A stretch of 64,000 nt of DNA from Camelus ferus (Eukaryota). Below the pieces are notes generated by a model. The model searched no databases. It was given only the letters and a program-made list of their open reading frames with translations, and was not told where the DNA came from. Shown one piece after another: positions 1,292 to 15,960 of this stretch (its first letter is position 1; every line of letters begins with the position of its first letter). A program made the translations under genes and the position numbers. The stretch covers positions 372,001 to 436,000 of the forward strand of contig NC_045696.1 of assembly GCF_009834535.1 (NCBI RefSeq), written 5' to 3'.

Positions 1292-2062
1292 CTAGAGGCA
1301 CAGTAAAGGCAGGGGAGAGGATCGCAGCTCTGGGGGGCTGCTTGGGGTGAGGCCAGGCCCCCAAACGCCCAGGAGAGCCACGGGGGCTCCTCTCACCAGA
1401 GAAGACATCCAAGGAGCCCCAAGACTGGTGAGAGTACTTCACAAAAACGTAAGATGAGAACTACACACGTTAAGTAAGAAAACATGCAATCTGCACGTTT
1501 GATACGTGAACATCCACAACCTGAACATAAACCTTCAGGGAACTCGGCTCATTTTCACACAGACGCAGGGTCCAGGCCGACGCCCTGGGAGCCAGCACCG
1601 CCACGGTGGCGAGGGGGCCCCATGAGACACATGCACACCAACCCGTCTGCTGCAAATAGAAGGGCCACCGCTTGTGGGGTCCACGCCACACGGGGCCCCG
1701 GCCCAAGCGCCCCGCCAGGCACCTGGCCTGCCCTCACCAGTGTCCACCCCACAAGGGACACCTGGACACTTGGTGCCATCTGGTGCTCATTTCTGTAACA
1801 GGCACTGACGGGGCAGTGGGCAGAAACTCAGTGAGACCTGTGGACCGGACGTCACAAAACACACGGTGACCCTCCCAGGAGGGGACTGATAACAGGTCAA
1901 GTGACGCTCAGTGCACAGACCCAGAGGCAGACAGACGTGGGGGGAGAGGCAGAGGGGAGCAGGAGCAGGCAGACACGCCAGGTTACCACGGGTTGGTAGG
2001 GCAGGGGCGCTCCCCCTGGTCTACACGCCACAGCTGCAGAAGTAAAACTGTGACTGACTCAC

Positions 2063-2159
2063 TTTTTTCAGCACTTTCTCCTTCTAACCCCAAAGGAGGT
2101 GATCTTGACTTTTCTTGAAAATCAAGAGATGTTACGATAAAATCTTCAACATCTTTCTC
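2063..2159 (-). CDS. PCNT: PCNT exon (~ex31), EKDVEDFIVTSLDFQEK...SAEK; 97 nt, phase 0>1
   Basis: GAACAG| acceptor, |GTGAGT donor; translated by hand. Confidence 0.93.
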
Positions 2160-3034
2160 CTGTTCAAATAGGGAGATTTGTAAATGGTCATAAAATAATA
2201 ACTTATTATGTCACAGAGTTCAACTTGCCAGCTGGAAACTAAGATCTGAGGCTGTCATCTTCCCACACAGAACCCAAACCCAAAAAGCGTTCAAAGCTGG
2301 TGGACATGAGGTTAAACGCTCATAATTTAATCAAATTCATCCACATTTCTCTAGGAATATGTTAAAGAAGTTACTGGCAAATATTTCATATTTTAAAGTC
2401 GTGCCTGCTGCAGGAGCACACAGACAAAAGACGGAAGCATGTGGGAATGAATGGTCGTATATGGACCCCTTAAATTACACAAACCGCATAATTTACCTGC
2501 CACTTTATCTAATCCAAGATACACAAAGTCTCAAAATTATGTCAGAGAAAATATAATCCAGCCCAAAAAAAATAAATGGAAGTGTTCCTGAAGTTAATTA
2601 GACTATATGTTGAACTCACTAAATATGAACTGCAACTGAAAATAAATCTAAAAAGACACGTTCTAGACCAAGAACCCTACGCAGAACACACGTAAAGATG
2701 TGTTTATGATTATACTTCCCATGAGTCAGGAAATGTGGGTCTGCTGTGAATTTCCGAGTAAGGCTAATGCATTTCAAGTGTTCTTAAGAACAACTGAAGT
2801 GCTCTATGTTCCTATCACAGTCGGTTTGGGTTCGTCCTGCAGGATGCTGACCATCCCACACCTGCTGACCAAGGGACTGCCAGATGCCCACCCAGGCCTG
2901 GCCACCAGGCCACATCAGGAGGTGAACCAACAATGGCTGCAGCTGTGACCCTGCCGGCCAGCCCCGCGGGAACATGCTGGGGCCTTGGGCGTCCCCTGGA
3001 CCCGAGCCAGGACAGCACCCAGGAGACCACTTAC

Positions 3035-3766
3035 CACAGCCCCTCGCTGAGCATGGTGGTCAGTAGAGGGAGTCCTGTCTGCAGCCAGTGGAGACTCCGC
3101 CCACCTAGGGGCCGTTCCTGCTGTGGACTCGCCCAGGTAACAAAGCAGCCCTGACTGGTCGGCCTGGAGCAGTGAGGTGACCGTCCCGTCCCATAGGGAG
3201 GTGTCCAGGCTACGCTGGCTCAGGGCATCCGAGCAGGGTGTCAGGGGCAGGCTGGGCATGGGCTCAAGGGTGGAGTCCTTCCTGGCGACCTCAGGGGAGC
3301 TCCAGGAGGCCAGGTCCATTGTCCTGAGCCCGAGCTTCAAGGGCTCGGGCCCCTCGGCGTGGGCGGGGTCCGGGAGGCATCTGAGCGAGCCCACCTGGGA
3401 GCAGAGCGACCCTTCCTGTGCAGCAACCTGCTCTACCGTGGGCGCATCCAGCATCCCACTTCTCAGCCACGAACCCTGACTTCCAACCGCGTCAACTAGA
3501 TCCCAGGTGGTTGTATCGACACTAAACGCATCGACGGGAGGTGAGCTGCCAGTTTCTTCACTGTTACTGGAACCATCACTCAAACTATTTTCTAGAACAT
3601 GTGAAGACGCCAGTGCCTGCTGAGATGTAAAGCCCTTCGTCTCGACGTCGACGTCTGGGAAGCTCATGGAATGCACCAGACGGCTCAGCTTCTCCTGAAG
3701 TTGTCTCGCCTGAGCTATGAGATCAGCTTTCCGAAGCTGACAACCTTCCAGTAGTTCGCCTTTATC
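3035..3766 (-). CDS. PCNT: PCNT exon (~ex30), DKGELLEGCQL...SWSSPEVARKD...QRGAV; 732 nt, phase 0>0 (separase-site exon)
   Basis: CTGCAG| acceptor, |GTAAGT donor. Confidence 0.95.
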
Positions 3767-3821
3767 CTGCAGGTAAAAAAGGACACACACACAGTGGAAT
3801 AACGAAATTGCACTCTGCCAC

Positions 3822-3852
<31 letters not shown>
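3822..3852. repeat. (GTCT)n tetranucleotide microsatellite, about 7.5 units
   Basis: Directly visible. Confidence 0.95.
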
Positions 3853-3968
3853 ACTTATGAGCCAATTTCAGGGTCTGAGCAAGTAAGGATGAGAGTCCAT
3901 GATGAGCCCTCGGGTCCCTCTAGACTCCTACAATTTCCAGTTTTGTTTCTGTTTTGTTTTAATTCCCC

Positions 3969-4011
3969 TGAACCCCTGCCCAGCCTGCCCCTGACACCCT
4001 GCTCAGATGCC
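3969..4011 (+). repeat. Inverted copy of exonic 3224-3266 (40/43 identity)
   Basis: Base-by-base comparison; 28-nt perfect core. Confidence 0.95.
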
Positions 4012-4019
4012 GAGCCGGG

Positions 4020-7000
4020 ATCCTAGAGAGATGGCAGAGCAGGAAGCACCAGGAATCCCTCTCCCCACCTGGACAACCCGCACTGGCAGAACTGTCCAAT
4101 ACAACCATCCTGCCAGTCTGGGGTCTGTCAAAGACTTGCAACCCCCAAGGGGAAGACTTGGAGGTAAGCTGCTCTCAGCACTTGGCAGGGAAACAGCTAC
4201 CTACCCCTCCATCGAAGGGCCCAGCAGGAATGATGCCTGTGTCCCTGGAGTACCTGCAGGGCCTAGGGTGGGCAAAAAGGACCATGTCCTCCAAAAACTG
4301 GGAATCTGTGCTCTGACTGCTGCTTCTGGTCACAGGGGTGCAGACAAAGAGGCAGGAGGCCAAGGCTGTTGCACCTGTCCCCCTCTTTGTTGCAGCCCCT
4401 GCCCCTCTGGCTGAAGTGACTTCCAGGGGAATCGAAGGGCAAGTGCTCTTTTTCCCTACCGTTGCATTTTCCTCTTTTATCTTTTTGGGGAAAAATTTAA
4501 AACTAGGACATTCAAAAACAACTGCATATATAAGGGAAATTCTGAAGTGACTGTGTGTGCCTAGGGAAAAGGCACAGGCTCAGAAAAGACCTGAGAACTT
4601 AACTTTACACCCCAGGCTGATCCTTAACTCAGAGACAACAATCTAAAAAAACAAAACAAAACAAAACAAAACAACAAAACAAAAACACCCAAACCAAAAG
4701 CCAAAAAAAATAAACCAAAAAAAAAAAAAAAACAAAAACCAACTCTCAAACAAACACAATAACAAAAAATAGCAAACACTGAGAAAGAGAGTCTGATTTC
4801 CAGATTTACCACATTATTAGGTTAAAAAGGTTCCATGTTCAACAACAACAACAAAAGTCACAAGCAAACAATGAAACAGGAAAGTACGGCCCAATCAGAG
4901 GAAAATGAATTAACAAATGAATTAGAAAATGAATTAACAAAAATTATCCAGGAAAAAGACCTGATGATGGATCTACCAAAGACTTCAAAAAAAGCCATTC
5001 AAGGACACATAAAGAATGAAGGAAAATGTGGAGAAAGTCAAAAAATAATGTATGAACAAAATTAAAATATCAATAAAAAAGGAAAAAAGAAATCAAAAAG
5101 AAATTCTGGCTGAAAAGTACAACAGCTGATATTAAAAACTCACTTAAGGGACTCAAAGACAGATCTCAGAAGGCAAAAGAAAGAATTAATGAACTTGAGA
5201 ACAAAGGAAATTATCAAATCTAAGGAAAAGAAAAAAAAGATTGGGAGAAGTAAATGGAGCCTACGGGACCTGTGAGACAGCATCAAACAAACCAACACAT
5301 GCATAATGGGAGTCCCAGAAGGAGAAGGAAGAGAGAAAGAGGCAAAGAGAAAATACGACGATACAGTGAATGAAAACTTTCCAAATTTGATGAAAGATAT
5401 GAACATAAATACCCAGGAAACTCCACAAACTCGAAGTAAGATGAACTCAGAGACCACTGCCAAGACACACCGTAATCAAACTTACAAACAAGCCAAAGAT
5501 AAAGAGAGAATGTTGAAAACTGACTTGCCACATGCAAAAGAACCTCAGTAAGATCAACAGATTTCTCCGCCAGAAACTTGTGGAGGCCAGAGGACAGTGC
5601 GTCAGTGTATTCAAAGTGCTAAAAGGAAAAGCACTGCCAACTAAGAATCCTAAATACAGCAAAACTGTCCTGCAAGAGTAGGGCAGAAATTAAAACATTC
5701 CCAGAGAAACAAAAGTGAGGCAGTTTGTTACCACTAAGACCTGCTCTGTGAGAAATGTTCAAGAGAGTCCTGCAGGGGAACTGAAGGAACCCTAGATAGT
5801 AAATGCAAGCTGTGTGGAGAAACAAAGATCTCAGTAAAGGAAAACGCGTGGGCAATTACAAAAGCTAACGTCACCGTAACAATGGCTTGTAACTGTGCAT
5901 TTTGTTTTCATCATGAATTAAAAGATTTTTTTTATCTTTTAAAAATATTTTCTAAGTTATTAGTCTGAAAGGTAGTATTGTAATTTGATTTTGTGACTCC
6001 ACATGTTTTCTACATAAAGAGATTAATGAATTTTAAAGAATTATTAGTTTATGTTTTGAGGCATACAGGCATAATAAGCATTAGCTTTTGTAAAAGAGAA
6101 ACGAGAAGGGAATTTAAACATTTCACTATTGAAAAAAAATCAATCAAACACAAGAGAAGACAGTAATGCAGCAAATGAGGGACCAAAAACGCTACAAGGC
6201 ATAAAGAAAACAAATAGCAAAGTGACAAGAGTACAGGGCTCTTTATCAGTAATGACTTTAAATGTAAATGGGTTAAGCTCTCCAAAGACAGAGATTGGCA
6301 GTATGTATAAAAACGCATGATCCAACTATATGCCGCCTACAGAAGCTCACTTTAGACTCAAAGACACAAATAGGTTGAAAATAGAAGGACAGAAAAAGGT
6401 ATTCCATGCAAATAATAACCAAAAGAGAGCAGGGTAGCTATTCTAATATCAGACAAAATAAATTTAAACCAAGAAAAGTTACAAGAGACAAAAAAGGAGA
6501 CTGAATCAGTAATTTAAAATCTCCCAACAAAACAAAGTTCTGGACCTGACAACTTCACTGGTGAATTCTACCTAACATTTAAGGAAGAAGTTACACCAAT
6601 TCTTTAGGGTCTCTTTCACAGGACAGAAGCAGAGGAAATGCCCCTAACCTATTGTGTGGGGCCTGCAAGACCCTGAGAGCTAAAGCCAAAGACACTGCAA
6701 GAAATGAAAACTGCAAACCAGTATCCCTTATAAACATTTGTGCAAAAATCCTCAACAAAATAATAACAAATCAAATTCAACACTAAAGGGATTATACACC
6801 GTAATCAAGTCGTGTTTATTCCTGAAATTCAACATGGGAAACTCCGTCGATGCAACACACCACATCAACAAAACGAAGGGAAAAAAGCCACACGATCTTC
6901 TCAGTTGATGCAGTAAAAGCATTTGAAAAGCAAAACCCAATACCCTTTCATGATTAAAAAAAAACAAACAAAACACGCAAGTCAACACACTAGTAGAGGG

Positions 7001-9060
7001 AAACTACTTTAACATACAAGAGCCACACACGAGACACCCTCAGGGAACATCACACCTGAGGAAAGGCTGGAGACTTTTCCTCTAAGATCAGGAACAAGGA
7101 AGGAGTGCCCACTTCCCTTACACACAGCACTGGAAATTCTAGCCAGAGCAATTAGGCAAGAGAAAGAAAGAAAGGGCATCCAAGCCGGAAGGGAGACATA
7201 AAGTGATCTGTGTTCACAAATGACATGATCCTACATGTAGAAAACCCTAACGGGTCCACAAAGTATTAAAACTAATAAGTCAACTCAGCAAAATCACAGG
7301 ACGCAAAGCCAGCACATAAAAATCAGCTGCGTTTCTGCACAAGGACAATCTGAAAAGAAAATGAAGAAAACAGTTCCATTTACAATAGAAAAAACAACAA
7401 CAACAAAAATTAACCAACAATTCACCAAGCAAGTGAAAGACTCGTACAATAAAAGAACAGACATTGCCAAAAGAAATTAAGGAAGACACAAATAAATGGA
7501 AACACATCTCATGGTTATGCTCTGGAAGACAGTACCGTCAAGATGTCAGTATTACCCAAAGCGATCTACAGATTCAACGCGGTCTCTAATCAAAATTCCA
7601 GACATTTTTGCAGAGATAGAAAAACCCGTCCTGAAATTCATATGGGATTTTAAAGGACCCCAAACAGCCAAAACCACCTTGGAAGAGAAGAACAAAGCTG
7701 AAAGACTTACACTTCCTGGCTTCAAACCTTCTGACAAAGCTACAGTAATCAAAACAGTGTCACACTGGCATAAAAACAGACACGGGATAGAACAGGAAGT
7801 CCAGGAATAAACCTCAGCGTGTACTGGAAAAGGATTTTTGACAATGGTGCCAAGACCATTCAGTGGGGAAAGGACTGTTTTCACAAATGACACTGGGAGT
7901 ACTGGATTATCCACACGCGGAAGAATGAGTTGGACCCTTCCCTAACACCACATACAAAAATTAAACCGAAAAAGATCAGACTTAAATGTAAGACCGAAAA
8001 CTATAATACTCTTGAGGAGAAAACATGGCAAAAGTTTCACATCATTGGATTTGGCAATGATTTCGTGGATATGACGCCAAAGGTACTGGAAACAAAATAT
8101 TAGACTTCATGACATTTTTTAAGTTTATGCATCAAAAGATACTATTAACAGTAAAAATGCAACCCACAAAATGAGAAAAAATGTCTGCAAATCAGACACC
8201 ACAATAAGGGATTCATTTATCCAAAACTACAGAGAGAAATCCTAGAAGAATTAAAAGAACCAAACATCCTGATTCAAAAATTGCCAACGGACCTGAACAG
8301 ACATCTCTCTAAAGAACATACACAAATGGCCAATAAGCACATGAAAAGATACTCAATATCACTAATCATCTGAGAACTGCAAATTCAAAACTACAATTAG
8401 GATGGCTACTAGCAGAAAAACAGAACATAACAAATACTAGCGAGGCTGTGGAGAACTTGGAACCCTTCTGCACTTCTGATGAGAATGAAAGCAGTGCAGC
8501 CACAGTGGGAAACACTATGGCAGGTCCTCAGAAAGTGAAAAATGGAACCACCATGTGATCCAGCAGCTCTGCTTCTGGGCATACACCTGACAGAGGTGAC
8601 ACAGTCTCTAAGAGGGATCTGCACACCCATGTCTACAGCAGCATGACTCACAACGGGTAGCGTGGGGAAGCAGCCCAGTGTCCACCAGCAGATGATGGAT
8701 AAGCAAAATGTGGTGTATACACACAGTGGAGTATTACTCGGCCTGAAAAAGGAAGAAAATTCTGACACATGCTACGACATGGATGAACCTTGGTGACAAC
8801 ATAATGAGTGAAATAAGGCAGAGTGAAGACAAATGCTGTGTGACTCCACTTATGTAAGATTCCTAGAGCATCTCAGAACTCACAGGAACAGAGAGCAGAA
8901 TGGTGGGCGCCGGGGGCAGGGGGGCTACTGGTCAGTCACACGGGCAGTTGCAGTTTTACAAGATGAAAACAGCTATGCAGACGGACAATCACACAATATT
9001 ATGACTTTACTTAATATCACTGAGTATACATTTCAAGTTGATTAAGATGTATTTTTACCA
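4020..9060 (+). mobile_element. Old degraded L1 (L1M-type): 5' region, ORF1 remnant ~5060-5800, ORF2 remnants with internal deletions, 3' UTR; includes A-rich (AAAAC)n tract ~4645-4770
   Basis: Peptide remnants GVPEGE..ENFPNLMKD, TLNVNGL, LKFIW..KGP..LPGFK..KATVIKT; boundaries approximate. Confidence 0.85.
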
Positions 9061-10095
9061 CACACACACGTCAAAACCTACTTTTTCAGGAAACAAAGCC
9101 TGGAAGGTTCTATATGCAAACACTGGAAAAAACAAAATTGTGATTTATGAAATGAATTTGGAATTTCCTTGTCAGTGTATGACTTCTAAGAATTTGGCGA
9201 CCAGCTCTTGGGATCCAGGGCTAAGCTTTCCCTTAAGAGTCCAAATAGATGTTCCTACCACAGGGCACTGAGACAAGTTTGCCACAAAGTCAGTGAAGAG
9301 GTTCTCTCCAAACAGAATATATCTTCTGAGGGGACCTGATAAACGCACAAAACCAGATTCAGGTGTCCTCTATGAAACTGCAGGCCTTGGCCTGCGGTCC
9401 TGTGCGCTGCAGGATTCGGAATCTCCCAGTCTCCCAATCCCCAACATGGTGCCTGTGGCACAGCACAGGGGGTCCCGGGGGCTCAGGCTGGAACCCGAGC
9501 ACAGTGTGCAGCGTGCACACAGCAGGGTGACGGGCTCTCACCCGAGCACCTGTCAGGTCTCAGAGCGTCTCAGCTCTATGACAGTCTGATGCTGCTGACT
9601 GCAGCCTCCCCACCTGGGACAGAAAAGTTGGCTTTCTTGTAGCTTCTGTCCTGGTGACCAGAATTTTAAACCTGCTGAGTTGAAGACTGCTCTGCTCTAC
9701 TTGGCCAGGAGGACGAGCGAAAAGATGAAGGGAAAACCCTGGAGGGTCAGAGGATAAACGTGACGCCTTCAGGTGAAGCCGACGCTGCCAATAAAGGCTG
9801 CGGGCCACTCGTCCTCATGGGAAAACTCCAAGACACAGCCCTGGCCCAGTCAGACCCCCACCTGTATCAACCACAAGGGAAAAATAACTGCTCATTTTTT
9901 ACAAGATGATTAGACCACGAGAAACGTGCGGGTGAATCAAACGTGGGAAATTTCAAAACGGATCTGAACGAGTGGCAGACTGCGGGAGGACGTCACTGTC
10001 TGCAGCCCATGTGCGTGACGCCAAGGGGTTCTCTGTCCATAACCAGCCCCCGTGCTCTGGGCCCCCACCCGCTGAACATGGCCAGGCACCCTCAC

Positions 10096-10281
10096 CGTTC
10101 CGGACACGTGGTCGTGGTCCTCCACGCGCGAGCACATTTCCTTCTTCACCAGAAGCAGCTCGGACTCCAGGAGCCTCTGGCAGACTGTGAGCACGGACAT
10201 CACGTCATCTTGCTTGCAAAGGCCTGCGCGGTTCAGCGTCACCAGGGCTTTGGCAGGCTGCAAGTCCGCCGTAGCTGGGCT
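10096..10281 (-). CDS. PCNT: PCNT exon (~ex29), SPATADLQP...MSVLTVCQR...VSGT; 186 nt, phase 0>0
   Basis: TTGCAG| acceptor, |GTGAGG donor. Confidence 0.9.
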
Positions 10282-10523
10282 CTGCAATGAGCAGAAAAAA
10301 CCACAATGATGCCTGCGAACACGCAGCCTCAGACTCTGGGAGCTCCGGAGCCGGCTCGCCCGCCAGCAAGTCTCCCAGGGAAAGTCCACAGCTCGTGACC
10401 CACATCACACAAGTGGGGCAGGAGACCAGAGAAGCACATGCCCACAACAGGCCAAGACGTGCTGGAGGCTGGGGCAACCCCACAAAGCACGGCCTCCCGC
10501 AGACATCAAGCACACTGCAGCTC

Positions 10524-13809: not shown

Positions 13810-15960
13810 TTGCAAACATTTCACCACCATATGGATGGCAAACAAGCATGTAGTAAGGTGTCATTAAGGAACTGCAAAGAAAAACTCCAAGGACACCCAC
13901 CACACACCCATGGGAACGGCCACAGTGAAGAAGACGGGCCACACCAAGTGCTGGCGAGGACGGGCGCAGTCCTCGCACACTGCTCCTGGGGGCGTAAGAT
14001 GGCAGAGCAATGGGCCAGAGTCAGGCAGTTTCTCTTGAGGTTAAACACACACTTACACGTGAATCAGCTGTTCTATTCGTAAGTATTTATCCTAAAGAAC
14101 TGAAAACTTTTTTTCACACAAAAACCTACACATGAATGTTTACAGCAGCTCAACTCATAACTTTCAGTCAGAACCTAGAAACAACCCAAACACACCTCAG
14201 TGAGTGAATGGATACACAAACCACGGATTAAAGTATTAAAAGAATTAGTGGATGAACTGCAAACACATTGTGCTAAGTGACTGACAGCATTCTGCAAAGG
14301 CAAAAGCCGCAGGGCTGGGGGACAGATCGGTGGCTGCAGGAGTGGGGTGGGGGAACGGTGGCCACAAGGGGCAGCACAGGGCTCAGGCCTCCTGGGTGAG
14401 GGACTCAGTGAGGCGCCGTCTTGGTTGCAGTGGTGCTTACAGAACGAAACGCAGTTTTCAAAACGCATGGAACTGTACCCTGAAAAGGGAATTTTACTGT
14501 GTTGTGGATTTTTTAAATACTTTGAAATATTTATCAATAAGAAATGGTTATATTAAAAATAAGATCTGTCTAAAATTAACAACTGAAGGTTTCACCTAAA
14601 GAAGCTAGAAAAAGAATAGCAAAATAAATCCAAGGTACATAGAAGGAATCCAATAACAGAAATGAGAGAAATCAAAGAAATAGGAAAAAAATTGACAAAA
14701 CTAGTAAAGCCAAAATTTGGTTTTTTAAAACATCAATAAAATTAATAAACCCCGAGAACAGAAAGATGTCAGAAAAAGAGAAAACACAGATTCACCAGTA
14801 AGAATGCAAAAAGGGTCATAGATGCCAAACTTACAGGTATTCAGTGACTTAACAGGAAATGGTTAATACGACTAATAGTTAACAAGGAAAGATTACAGAT
14901 TCCTTCATGCCAAGAAATTTGACAATCTGGATGAAATCGACAAACTCCTTGAAAAACGCAACTTATCAAAACCAGCACAAGCTGAAACAGAAAGTCTCAA
15001 CACCCACATACCTAATAAAGAAACTGAGTTCATCACCAAAATGTCCCCACTAAGTAGCCTCCAGGGCCAGATGGTTTCGTGTGCATTCTATCAAAACATT
15101 TAAGGGAAAAAAATCACATCCATTTAAATAACCTCTGTCAGAAAATGGAGAAAGTAGGAGAATTTCAGTTTACAAGCCCAGCAAAGTCTTCATACCAAAA
15201 TCTGATAAAATATCACCAAAAACAAATACAGACTGGAATCCCTCATGAACACAGACGTGAAATCCACTAAAAACATCAGCAGCTCAGCCCCGGCGACGGC
15301 GACGCACTGAGAGCCGCCCGTCGGCACCCAGCAGGGCTCGCCCCAGGCGAGGCTGGCTGAACCTCCCCAACCACCCAGTGTAACGCACCCTGTTAGACAA
15401 CGAGAACAAGAACACAACCACTTCTGAAGAGTCGGAGGACGGAAGCAGAAACAAAAGGGAACCGCCTCAACCTGAGGAAGGACCGCTAGGAGACCTGCAG
15501 CTGACACCCACCCCACGTGGGACAGCGAGGGGGCGGGGCCAGGACGGCCGCCTTCAGCGGTTGTGCTTAACCCAGCACTGCAAGTGCCCGCCCTGCAATA
15601 AGCACCAAAACGAAGAGAATACAAAGACTGGAAAGAGACAAGGCGGGCTTTACTTGCAGGCAGTGTGCTCTTCTGCAGAGAAAGCCCCAGAAGTCTGTCC
15701 CAACACTACCAGTATGCGTGAGTTCAGCAAGGTAACAGGGTACAAGGTTAACACGCAAAAATTACACACATGCATGTGTGTAAGTGTGCTCACGGCAAAC
15801 AGCTAGATAATGAAAGAAGTTTAAGTCTGTTTACAATAGTGCAACAAGCCAAAAATACTCAGGAGTGCATCTAATAAACGACGTTCAAGACCTCGTCCTT
15901 GAAAACTACAGAGTAAGAGGGAAGGTCAACGAAAAATGAAAGAAACACCACTAACCAGGT
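13810..15960 (+). mobile_element. Highly degraded old L1 3' and ORF2 remnants
   Basis: Recognisable L1 phrases (tttgacaatctggatgaaat.gacaaa, ttcagcaaggtaacagggtacaagg); boundaries approximate. Confidence 0.7.

Follow-up and report, generated by a model that had tools for sequence, protein, structure and literature searches.

An inverted copy of a pericentrin exon segment adjoins the 5′ terminus of an old L1 in the neighbouring intron of Camelus ferus

We analysed a window of Camelus ferus DNA, by which we mean the whole stretch of 64,000 nucleotides (64 kb) at positions 372,001 to 436,000 of contig NC_045696.1. Protein searches identified the gene on the minus strand as pericentrin (PCNT). 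For the exon considered here, identity was 64% with a rhinoceros fragment, 58% with seal and 49% with colugo, and the Camelus ferus protein model showed 100% identity to it over the covered part; camelid PCNT orthologs were absent among the matches listed (120 of 359 protein hits). The tblastn search with orthologs placed the preceding exon, which ends at about 10096, at 10284-10090 and the following one at 2159-2073. These placements agree with the borders at 10096 and 2159 proposed in a first-pass annotation of the same DNA, and its account of a frame-symmetric 732-nt exon with its splice sites also proved right. The features of the gene at this locus are as follows:

3035..3766, minus strand: pericentrin exon of 732 nt (244 codons, open frame), acceptor AG at 3768-3767 and donor GT at 3034-3033
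3767..10095, minus strand: intron of 6329 nt upstream of the 732-nt exon, placed by splice sites and tblastn
3281..3283, minus strand: Arg codon of the conserved SPEVxR (ExxR) motif, by motif the probable equivalent of human separase site R2231

The exon evolves fast overall; within it, the block DLSSWSSPEVxRKDSTLEPxPSLPLTPCSDAL is nearly invariant in the mammals examined (rhino, seal, colugo, whale, pig, horse, cat, bat and primates). The ExxR motif reads SPEVAR in the camel exon, SPEV[VILA]R in the examined orthologs and SPEVLR in human isoform P0125. The Arg codon of the camel PEVAR lies at 3283-3281, 14 nt before position 3266, the offset from the repeated segment described below that the first-pass annotation had given. 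In human pericentrin, R2231 is reported as a separase site with the ExxR consensus, and the PLK1 sites S2222, S2259 and S2267 lie close to it, according to the accessible parts of two papers (PMC4682042, PMC4191886); the accessible part of the former also describes R2231A pericentrin as cleavage-resistant in human cells. In the human isoform that we examined (3246 residues), the Arg of SPEVLR is residue 2220, compared to the published R2231. Judging by the motif, the Arg of the camel SPEVAR is probably the equivalent of human R2231, with this offset in human numbering (2220 vs 2231) remaining. The minus-strand codon at 3308-3310 is GCC and encodes Ala (DLASW) in camel, as opposed to Ser (DLSSW) in the other mammals examined. 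This Ala is present in the Camelus ferus model too, and its offset of -9 from the ExxR Arg makes it the equivalent of human S2222, which is one of nine PLK1 sites reported necessary for separase cleavage in the accessible text of PMC4682042. A search of metagenome contigs for orthologous loci gave 292 pattern hits with the exon alignment, 0 of them confirmed, and 0 hits with a degenerate DNA pattern for PSLPLTPCSDA.

Part of this conserved coding sequence occurs a second time, inverted, in the upstream intron:

3217..3270, minus strand: exonic arm, the source copy, coding (T)LEPMPSLPLTPCSDALS directly past the ExxR motif; the peptide is conserved in mammals
3965..4016, plus strand: intronic arm, the inverted copy; its plus strand is PCNT-sense (PEPLPSLPLTPCSDAE), and the pre-mRNA (minus strand) carries it as a G-rich stretch complementary to the exonic arm

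A repeat search detected the inverted repeat at 3224-3270 and 3965-4011, with arms of 47 nt, 91% complementarity and a spacing of 694 nt. In the gapped alignment of 3217-3270 with the reverse complement of 3965-4016, 48 of 52 columns were identical and one 2-nt gap was present; the perfect core of the two arms measured 28 nt (3231-3258 / 3977-4004). Furthermore, residues 19-32 of Camelus ferus PCNT aligned by tblastn to the plus strand at 3970-4011 with 13/14 identical residues. The first-pass annotation had counted 40/43 matches between intronic 3969-4011 and exonic 3224-3266, with a 28-nt perfect core, a 5-nt extension past a 2-nt gap and the same peptide on both strands, and the gapped alignment and tblastn bear out each of these points. 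The peptide block is conserved across mammals and thus ancestral, which makes the exon the source of the intronic arm. A search of the 2.09-Gb assembly with the intronic arm returned 2 matches, its own locus and the exonic arm; having no further genomic copies, the intronic arm is a member of no repeat family.

The 48/52 inverted match between the arms far exceeds chance. Exact inverted matches of at least 20 nt and no more than 2 kb apart numbered only two in the whole 64-kb window, namely the 28-nt match between the exonic and intronic arms and a 20-nt one at 15762. This second match (15762-15783) is a 20-nt perfect palindrome-like pair. In 14 DNA runs from 7 studies, the 108 words of 31 nt sampled from 3000-4100 were all present (share 1.00), and none of these words can fit both arms, whose perfect core of 28 nt is too short for that. 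No evidence in favour of an artefact was found; eleven of the 14 runs were flagged as possible assembly sources, and the other three were unflagged. Misassembly of the arm region is thus very unlikely, and the reading in which an assembly artefact or a chance similarity explains the inverted copy has, taken as a whole, a negligible probability.

The intronic arm lies between a short microsatellite and an old L1 element. The relevant features are as follows:

4017..9063, plus strand: old L1 with a full-length 5′ end, antisense to PCNT, by homology to genomic copies and Pfam
5276-5548, plus strand: RBD-like domain of L1 ORF1 (Pfam PF02994)
9064..9077, plus strand: degenerate remnant of the L1 A-tail (CACACACGTCAAAA)
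3822..3852, no strand: (GTCT)7.8 microsatellite within the 694-nt loop between the arms
3940..3960, no strand: (GTTTT)4, bordering the intronic arm on its 5′ side and reverse-complementary to the (AAAAC)n inside the L1

The L1 stretch of the intron, from 4017 on, is A-rich in composition. On the plus strand, PF02994 (L1 ORF1 RBD-like) reached 31.5 bits (cut-off 22.4) and was the sole match among the 10 ORFs scanned. At the 3′ end, homology with other L1 copies continues up to about 9057 and is followed by the degenerate tail. Rfam gave 0 matches at gathering score in 2000-10300. A T-rich stretch at 5900-6100, between the ORF1 and ORF2 regions, did not appear L1-like by eye and may represent a nested insertion or a rearrangement. 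In addition, (GTTTT)4 at 3940-3960 and the (AAAAC)19 of the L1 at 4648-4737 form a second, low-complexity inverted pair that spans the junction.

The left border of the L1 was determined by alignment with 29 other genomic copies of its 5′ region. None of them (0/29) extended to the left of window position 4012; 12 started at 4012-4021, 11 at 4029-4043 and 6 further inside. The upstream flanks of the 17 copies inspected were unrelated to one another and to the window, indicating that 4017 is the canonical first nucleotide of the L1 family. The copy of the exon segment ends at 4016 and therefore abuts this nucleotide directly. Both lie on the plus strand in sense orientation, as seen from tblastn for the PCNT-sense copy and from the ORF1 domain for the L1, and the junction is a sense-to-sense, head-to-tail fusion. 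The new observation at this locus is that a PCNT-sense exon copy is fused to the canonical 5′ terminus of an L1 in L1 sense.

We propose that the 52-nt exon segment was captured, inverted, as extra sequence at the L1 5′ junction during integration, and we give this reading a probability of about 0.5. Having arrived at the 5′ end of the L1 RNA, the reverse transcriptase of the L1 (or a repair polymerase completing the junction) would have jumped onto a local PCNT-sense template about 750 nt away. Either the nascent PCNT transcript or, identical in sequence, the minus strand of the DNA could have served as this template. The growing minus-strand cDNA would have been extended by ~52 nt, from about 3217 towards 3270, possibly with the use of GAGCC/GCC microhomology, and the extended end would then have been joined to the target. 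The GAGCC past the 2-nt gap is a possible junction microhomology. The first-pass annotation had described the arrangement as a local template-switch duplication at the edge of an old L1. Its local, inverted exon copy and its L1 edge both stand, whereas the template switch during replication is disfavoured: direct fusion to the L1 5′ terminus, the sense-to-sense orientation and the same layout in known chimeras favour capture at integration.

The main competitor is a later event unconnected with the L1: template switching in replication, or templated inverted synthesis during alternative end joining at a break, would have placed the copy beside the L1 terminus by coincidence. In its local origin and its inversion the copy resembles templated insertions at breaks, which are mostly about 5-34 bp long in the accessible part of PMC11724301, and the adjoining (GTTTT)4 microsatellite could have been fragile. 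However, it would then be coincidental that the copy meets the canonical first nucleotide of the L1, with a chance of about 11/6329 (by arithmetic) of landing within 5 nt of the L1 terminus in the 6329-nt intron. The sense-to-sense orientation with the L1 would be a second coincidence, of 1 in 2. Moreover, a copy of 52 nt taken from a distance of 694 nt is large for a short template switch or a foldback insertion. The apparent youth of the arm, which differs at 4/52 positions against 0.21 for the L1 (see below), speaks for the later event. Weighing these points, we regard such an event as rather unlikely and rank capture at integration, at about even odds, ahead of it as the origin.

Two further findings count against capture at integration. 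Under both boundary models (L1 plus arm, and L1 alone), no significant candidate for a target-site duplication was found; the best candidate, 3927-3937 vs 9077-9087, was equalled or beaten by 1217/2000 and 1472/5000 shuffles, and in an element of this age target-site duplications may have decayed. In addition, the mechanism leaves the (GTTTT)4 that separates arm and flank unexplained.

Several other origins were considered and set aside. An arm older than the L1 did not fit, as there was no duplication of the arm end after the L1 tail and the arm is less, not more, diverged than the L1. A recent trans-mobilised copy of an old element was rejected, because the best other genomic match to the L1 5′ UTR was only 74% identical. 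A 5′ transduction, or a pre-formed chimeric RNA inserting at random, is unlikely: the captured piece derives from about 750 nt away, which argues for a local acceptor template. Finally, (GTTTT)4 could hint at a retrocopy of an A-tailed antisense PCNT RNA, but this is not supported: on the plus strand, inspection by eye past 3270 showed neither an AATAAA nor an A-rich tract.

The relative ages of the arm and the L1 were compared by their divergence. Against the majority state among 17 other copies, the L1 5′ UTR showed differences at 125 of 592 sites (0.211), with a range of 0.123-0.185 for the other copies, and its least-squares K2P branch was 0.254 vs a mean of 0.182. At the rates of the L1 itself (0.194 at G/C sites and 0.227 at A/T sites), about 10.6 arm-side changes would be expected in 52 nt. 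The arm shows no more than 4 substitutions over this length, and P(X<=4) is 0.02 with the site-class rates and 0.008 with a flat rate of 0.211. With a true rate of 0.15 or 0.12, P becomes 0.09 or 0.24, respectively. Subfamily differences and alignment error may inflate the age of the L1, and P is about 0.01-0.2 across age estimates. The arm is thus about three times less diverged than the adjoining L1, and this internal dating, as far as it goes, argues weakly against a simultaneous arrival of the two. Within 4017-4640 of the L1 5′ UTR, we also counted 60 weak-to-strong (A/T to G/C) changes, compared to 16-50 in the 17 other copies, while strong-to-weak changes were ordinary (48 vs 42-67 in the other L1 copies). 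In this GC-rich region, the weak-to-strong excess looks like GC-biased fixation.

One of the differences between the arms falls in a codon that is variable among mammals. The exon has ATG (Met) at 3257-3259, as opposed to CTG (Leu) at 3976-3978 in the arm; pig has Leu, and horse, rhino and whales have Pro. From this comparison, the change from Leu CTG to Met ATG probably lies on the exon side. The intronic arm seems to keep the older exon state at this codon and may be a fossil of an intermediate.

We next consider the RNA. On the transcribed strand, the two arms are predicted by duplexfold to form a duplex of -114.7 kcal/mol, compared to -102.5 kcal/mol for the plus strand. The minus-strand duplex comprises 51 bp with one G.A mismatch, three G-U wobbles and a 2-nt bulge. 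When the arms were folded in a 1401-nt context, the designated pairs had a mean probability of 0.97, and 46/47 of them exceeded 0.5. We also ran the fold of 3200-4030 that had been suggested with the first-pass annotation, and the arms were paired in both the MFE and the centroid structures; the MFE was -360.1 kcal/mol (z = -5.84), and 0/20 shuffles were as stable. The wobble pairing and the loop of ~700 nt that had been predicted are both found, in that the minus-strand RNA turns 3/4 substitutions into G-U pairs and leaves one G.A mismatch, and the loop of 694 nt contains the 3′ splice site, the pyrimidine tract and (GTCT)7.8. Canonical G-quadruplex motifs (at least 4 tracts of G3+, loops of 1-7 nt) are present in the minus-strand RNA of 3965-4016 and in the plus DNA strand of 3217-3270. 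Such a motif therefore occurs in RNA only in the intronic arm and in DNA on the template strand of the exon.

Such a duplex raises the question of a function. The arm might be kept by selection as an editing-complementary sequence (ECS) for ADAR or as a modulator of the 3′ splice site, and the consequences would be the recoding of conserved residues (e.g., Ser172 from AGC to Gly) or an in-frame PCNT that lacks the separase site. The duplex of 51 bp is very stable and nearly perfect, and since the exon has 244 codons, skipping would keep the frame. Exon-intron ECS duplexes are moreover established as a kind in the accessible parts of PMC7045468 and PMC3479170. The lower divergence of the arm relative to the L1 (P about 0.01-0.02 at the face-value age of the L1) is the sole favourable hint for selection.

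The remaining sequence features fit a functional duplex less well. All three transition differences between the arms become G-U wobbles on the transcribed strand, whose duplex is the more stable one, but three wobbles out of three have a chance probability of 1/8. Compensatory double changes between the arms were not found, and the only true mismatch, the probable exon-side change from Leu to Met, is left uncompensated. ADAR disfavours adenosines with a 5′ G. Of the 7 exonic-arm adenosines, 4 are preceded by a G and one faces the G of the mismatch; the most favourably placed candidate for recoding is the one at 3253, which opens the invariant Ser codon AGC. A literature search on pericentrin and ADAR editing, including PCNT RNA editing, yielded no relevant report. 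Six RNA runs contained 0.72-0.89 of the sampled 3000-4100 words, compared to about 0.655 for the exon alone; these are word shares only, and shares above 0.655 indicate that the exon is present in RNA together with some flanking intron. The exon is thus not constitutively skipped. The flanking intron in contigs from RNA libraries represents unspliced RNA or DNA carry-over. Taken together, maintenance of the duplex by selection appears improbable.

A more specific scenario combines origin and function. L1 integration would have written a piece of the host transcript into the adjacent intron and so created an ECS or structural element that has since been kept, tuning the recoding of, e.g., the invariant Ser of SLPLTP, or the inclusion of the separase-site exon. 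Retention of the duplex since integration would account for an arm that is ~3 times less diverged than the L1. We consider this scenario quite improbable. Most likely, the effect of the arm duplex today is nil or amounts to low-level, promiscuous ADAR editing, and it would not act as a regulatory switch of the separase-site exon. Neutrality, which the first-pass annotation had also allowed for and which we assume from base rates, is favoured by the lack of compensatory changes and by the sole true mismatch, which has not been repaired.

If the segment was captured during integration, the locus would be a natural example of an L1 junction that takes up transcript or DNA of its own landing site, and it would bear on template switching by the L1 reverse transcriptase at the end of its RNA. 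A retrotransposon could then make an exon-complementary intronic sequence in one step. If the duplex was in addition kept as an ECS, retrotransposition would be a route to the de novo birth of ECS elements. Any use of the duplex would concern a 244-codon exon that carries the ExxR separase site and the nearby PLK1 phospho-sites licensing centriole disengagement. If the duplex is neutral, as we hold most likely, the locus is an instructive yet ordinary structural scar.

The arrangement can be compared with several known systems. Twin priming, which takes place during integration, produces a 5′ inversion of the L1 and a head-to-head arrangement at the L1 5′ part. What it inverts is L1 sequence, whereas the camel piece is host exon sequence and is sense to the L1. 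A closer likeness is found in the 5′ chimeras of the human genome. In hg38, 17 mRNA/lncRNA-L1 5′ chimeras were reported, of which 15 are sense to the L1 and most have near full-length L1 parts, and template switching of ORF2p is one accepted model for 5′ chimeric L1 insertions, with RNA ligation and trans-splicing as other routes, as stated in the accessible part of the Law and Burns 2025 preprint (PMC11838501). The mRNA/L1 and U6/L1 chimeras described there share with the camel case a cellular sequence fused to the L1 5′ end, the sense orientation to the L1 and the near full-length L1. However, what the mRNA/L1 chimeras in that text carry is the first exon of a distant gene, in many cases up to a splice donor, while the camel piece is a 52-nt internal segment from the middle of an exon and has no splice-donor end. 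Furthermore, the camel piece comes from the gene in which its own L1 landed, about 750 nt from the junction, and consequently forms an inverted repeat with its source.

Short template-switch mutations and foldback or Pol-theta insertions (PMC11724301 for inverted insertions at breaks) resemble the camel copy in being local, inverted and templated, with possible junction microhomology. They are mostly shorter and closer to their source. The camel copy, by contrast, measures 52 nt, has its source 694 nt away and is fused to a retrotransposon terminus.

Typical site-selective ADAR substrates are shorter and less perfect duplexes than the camel one of 51 bp. The ECSs of the GluA2 Q/R site (PMC7045468) and the distant intronic element of Gabra-3 (PMC3479170) likewise pair an intron with a coding exon. 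Established ECSs show conservation between species and measured editing, whereas the camel arm is a candidate by its predicted pairing. The camel arm also differs from these known ECSs in its placement, as it lies in the upstream intron. Exon-intron pairing of this kind exists in the pre-mRNA, so any effect of the duplex must precede splicing.
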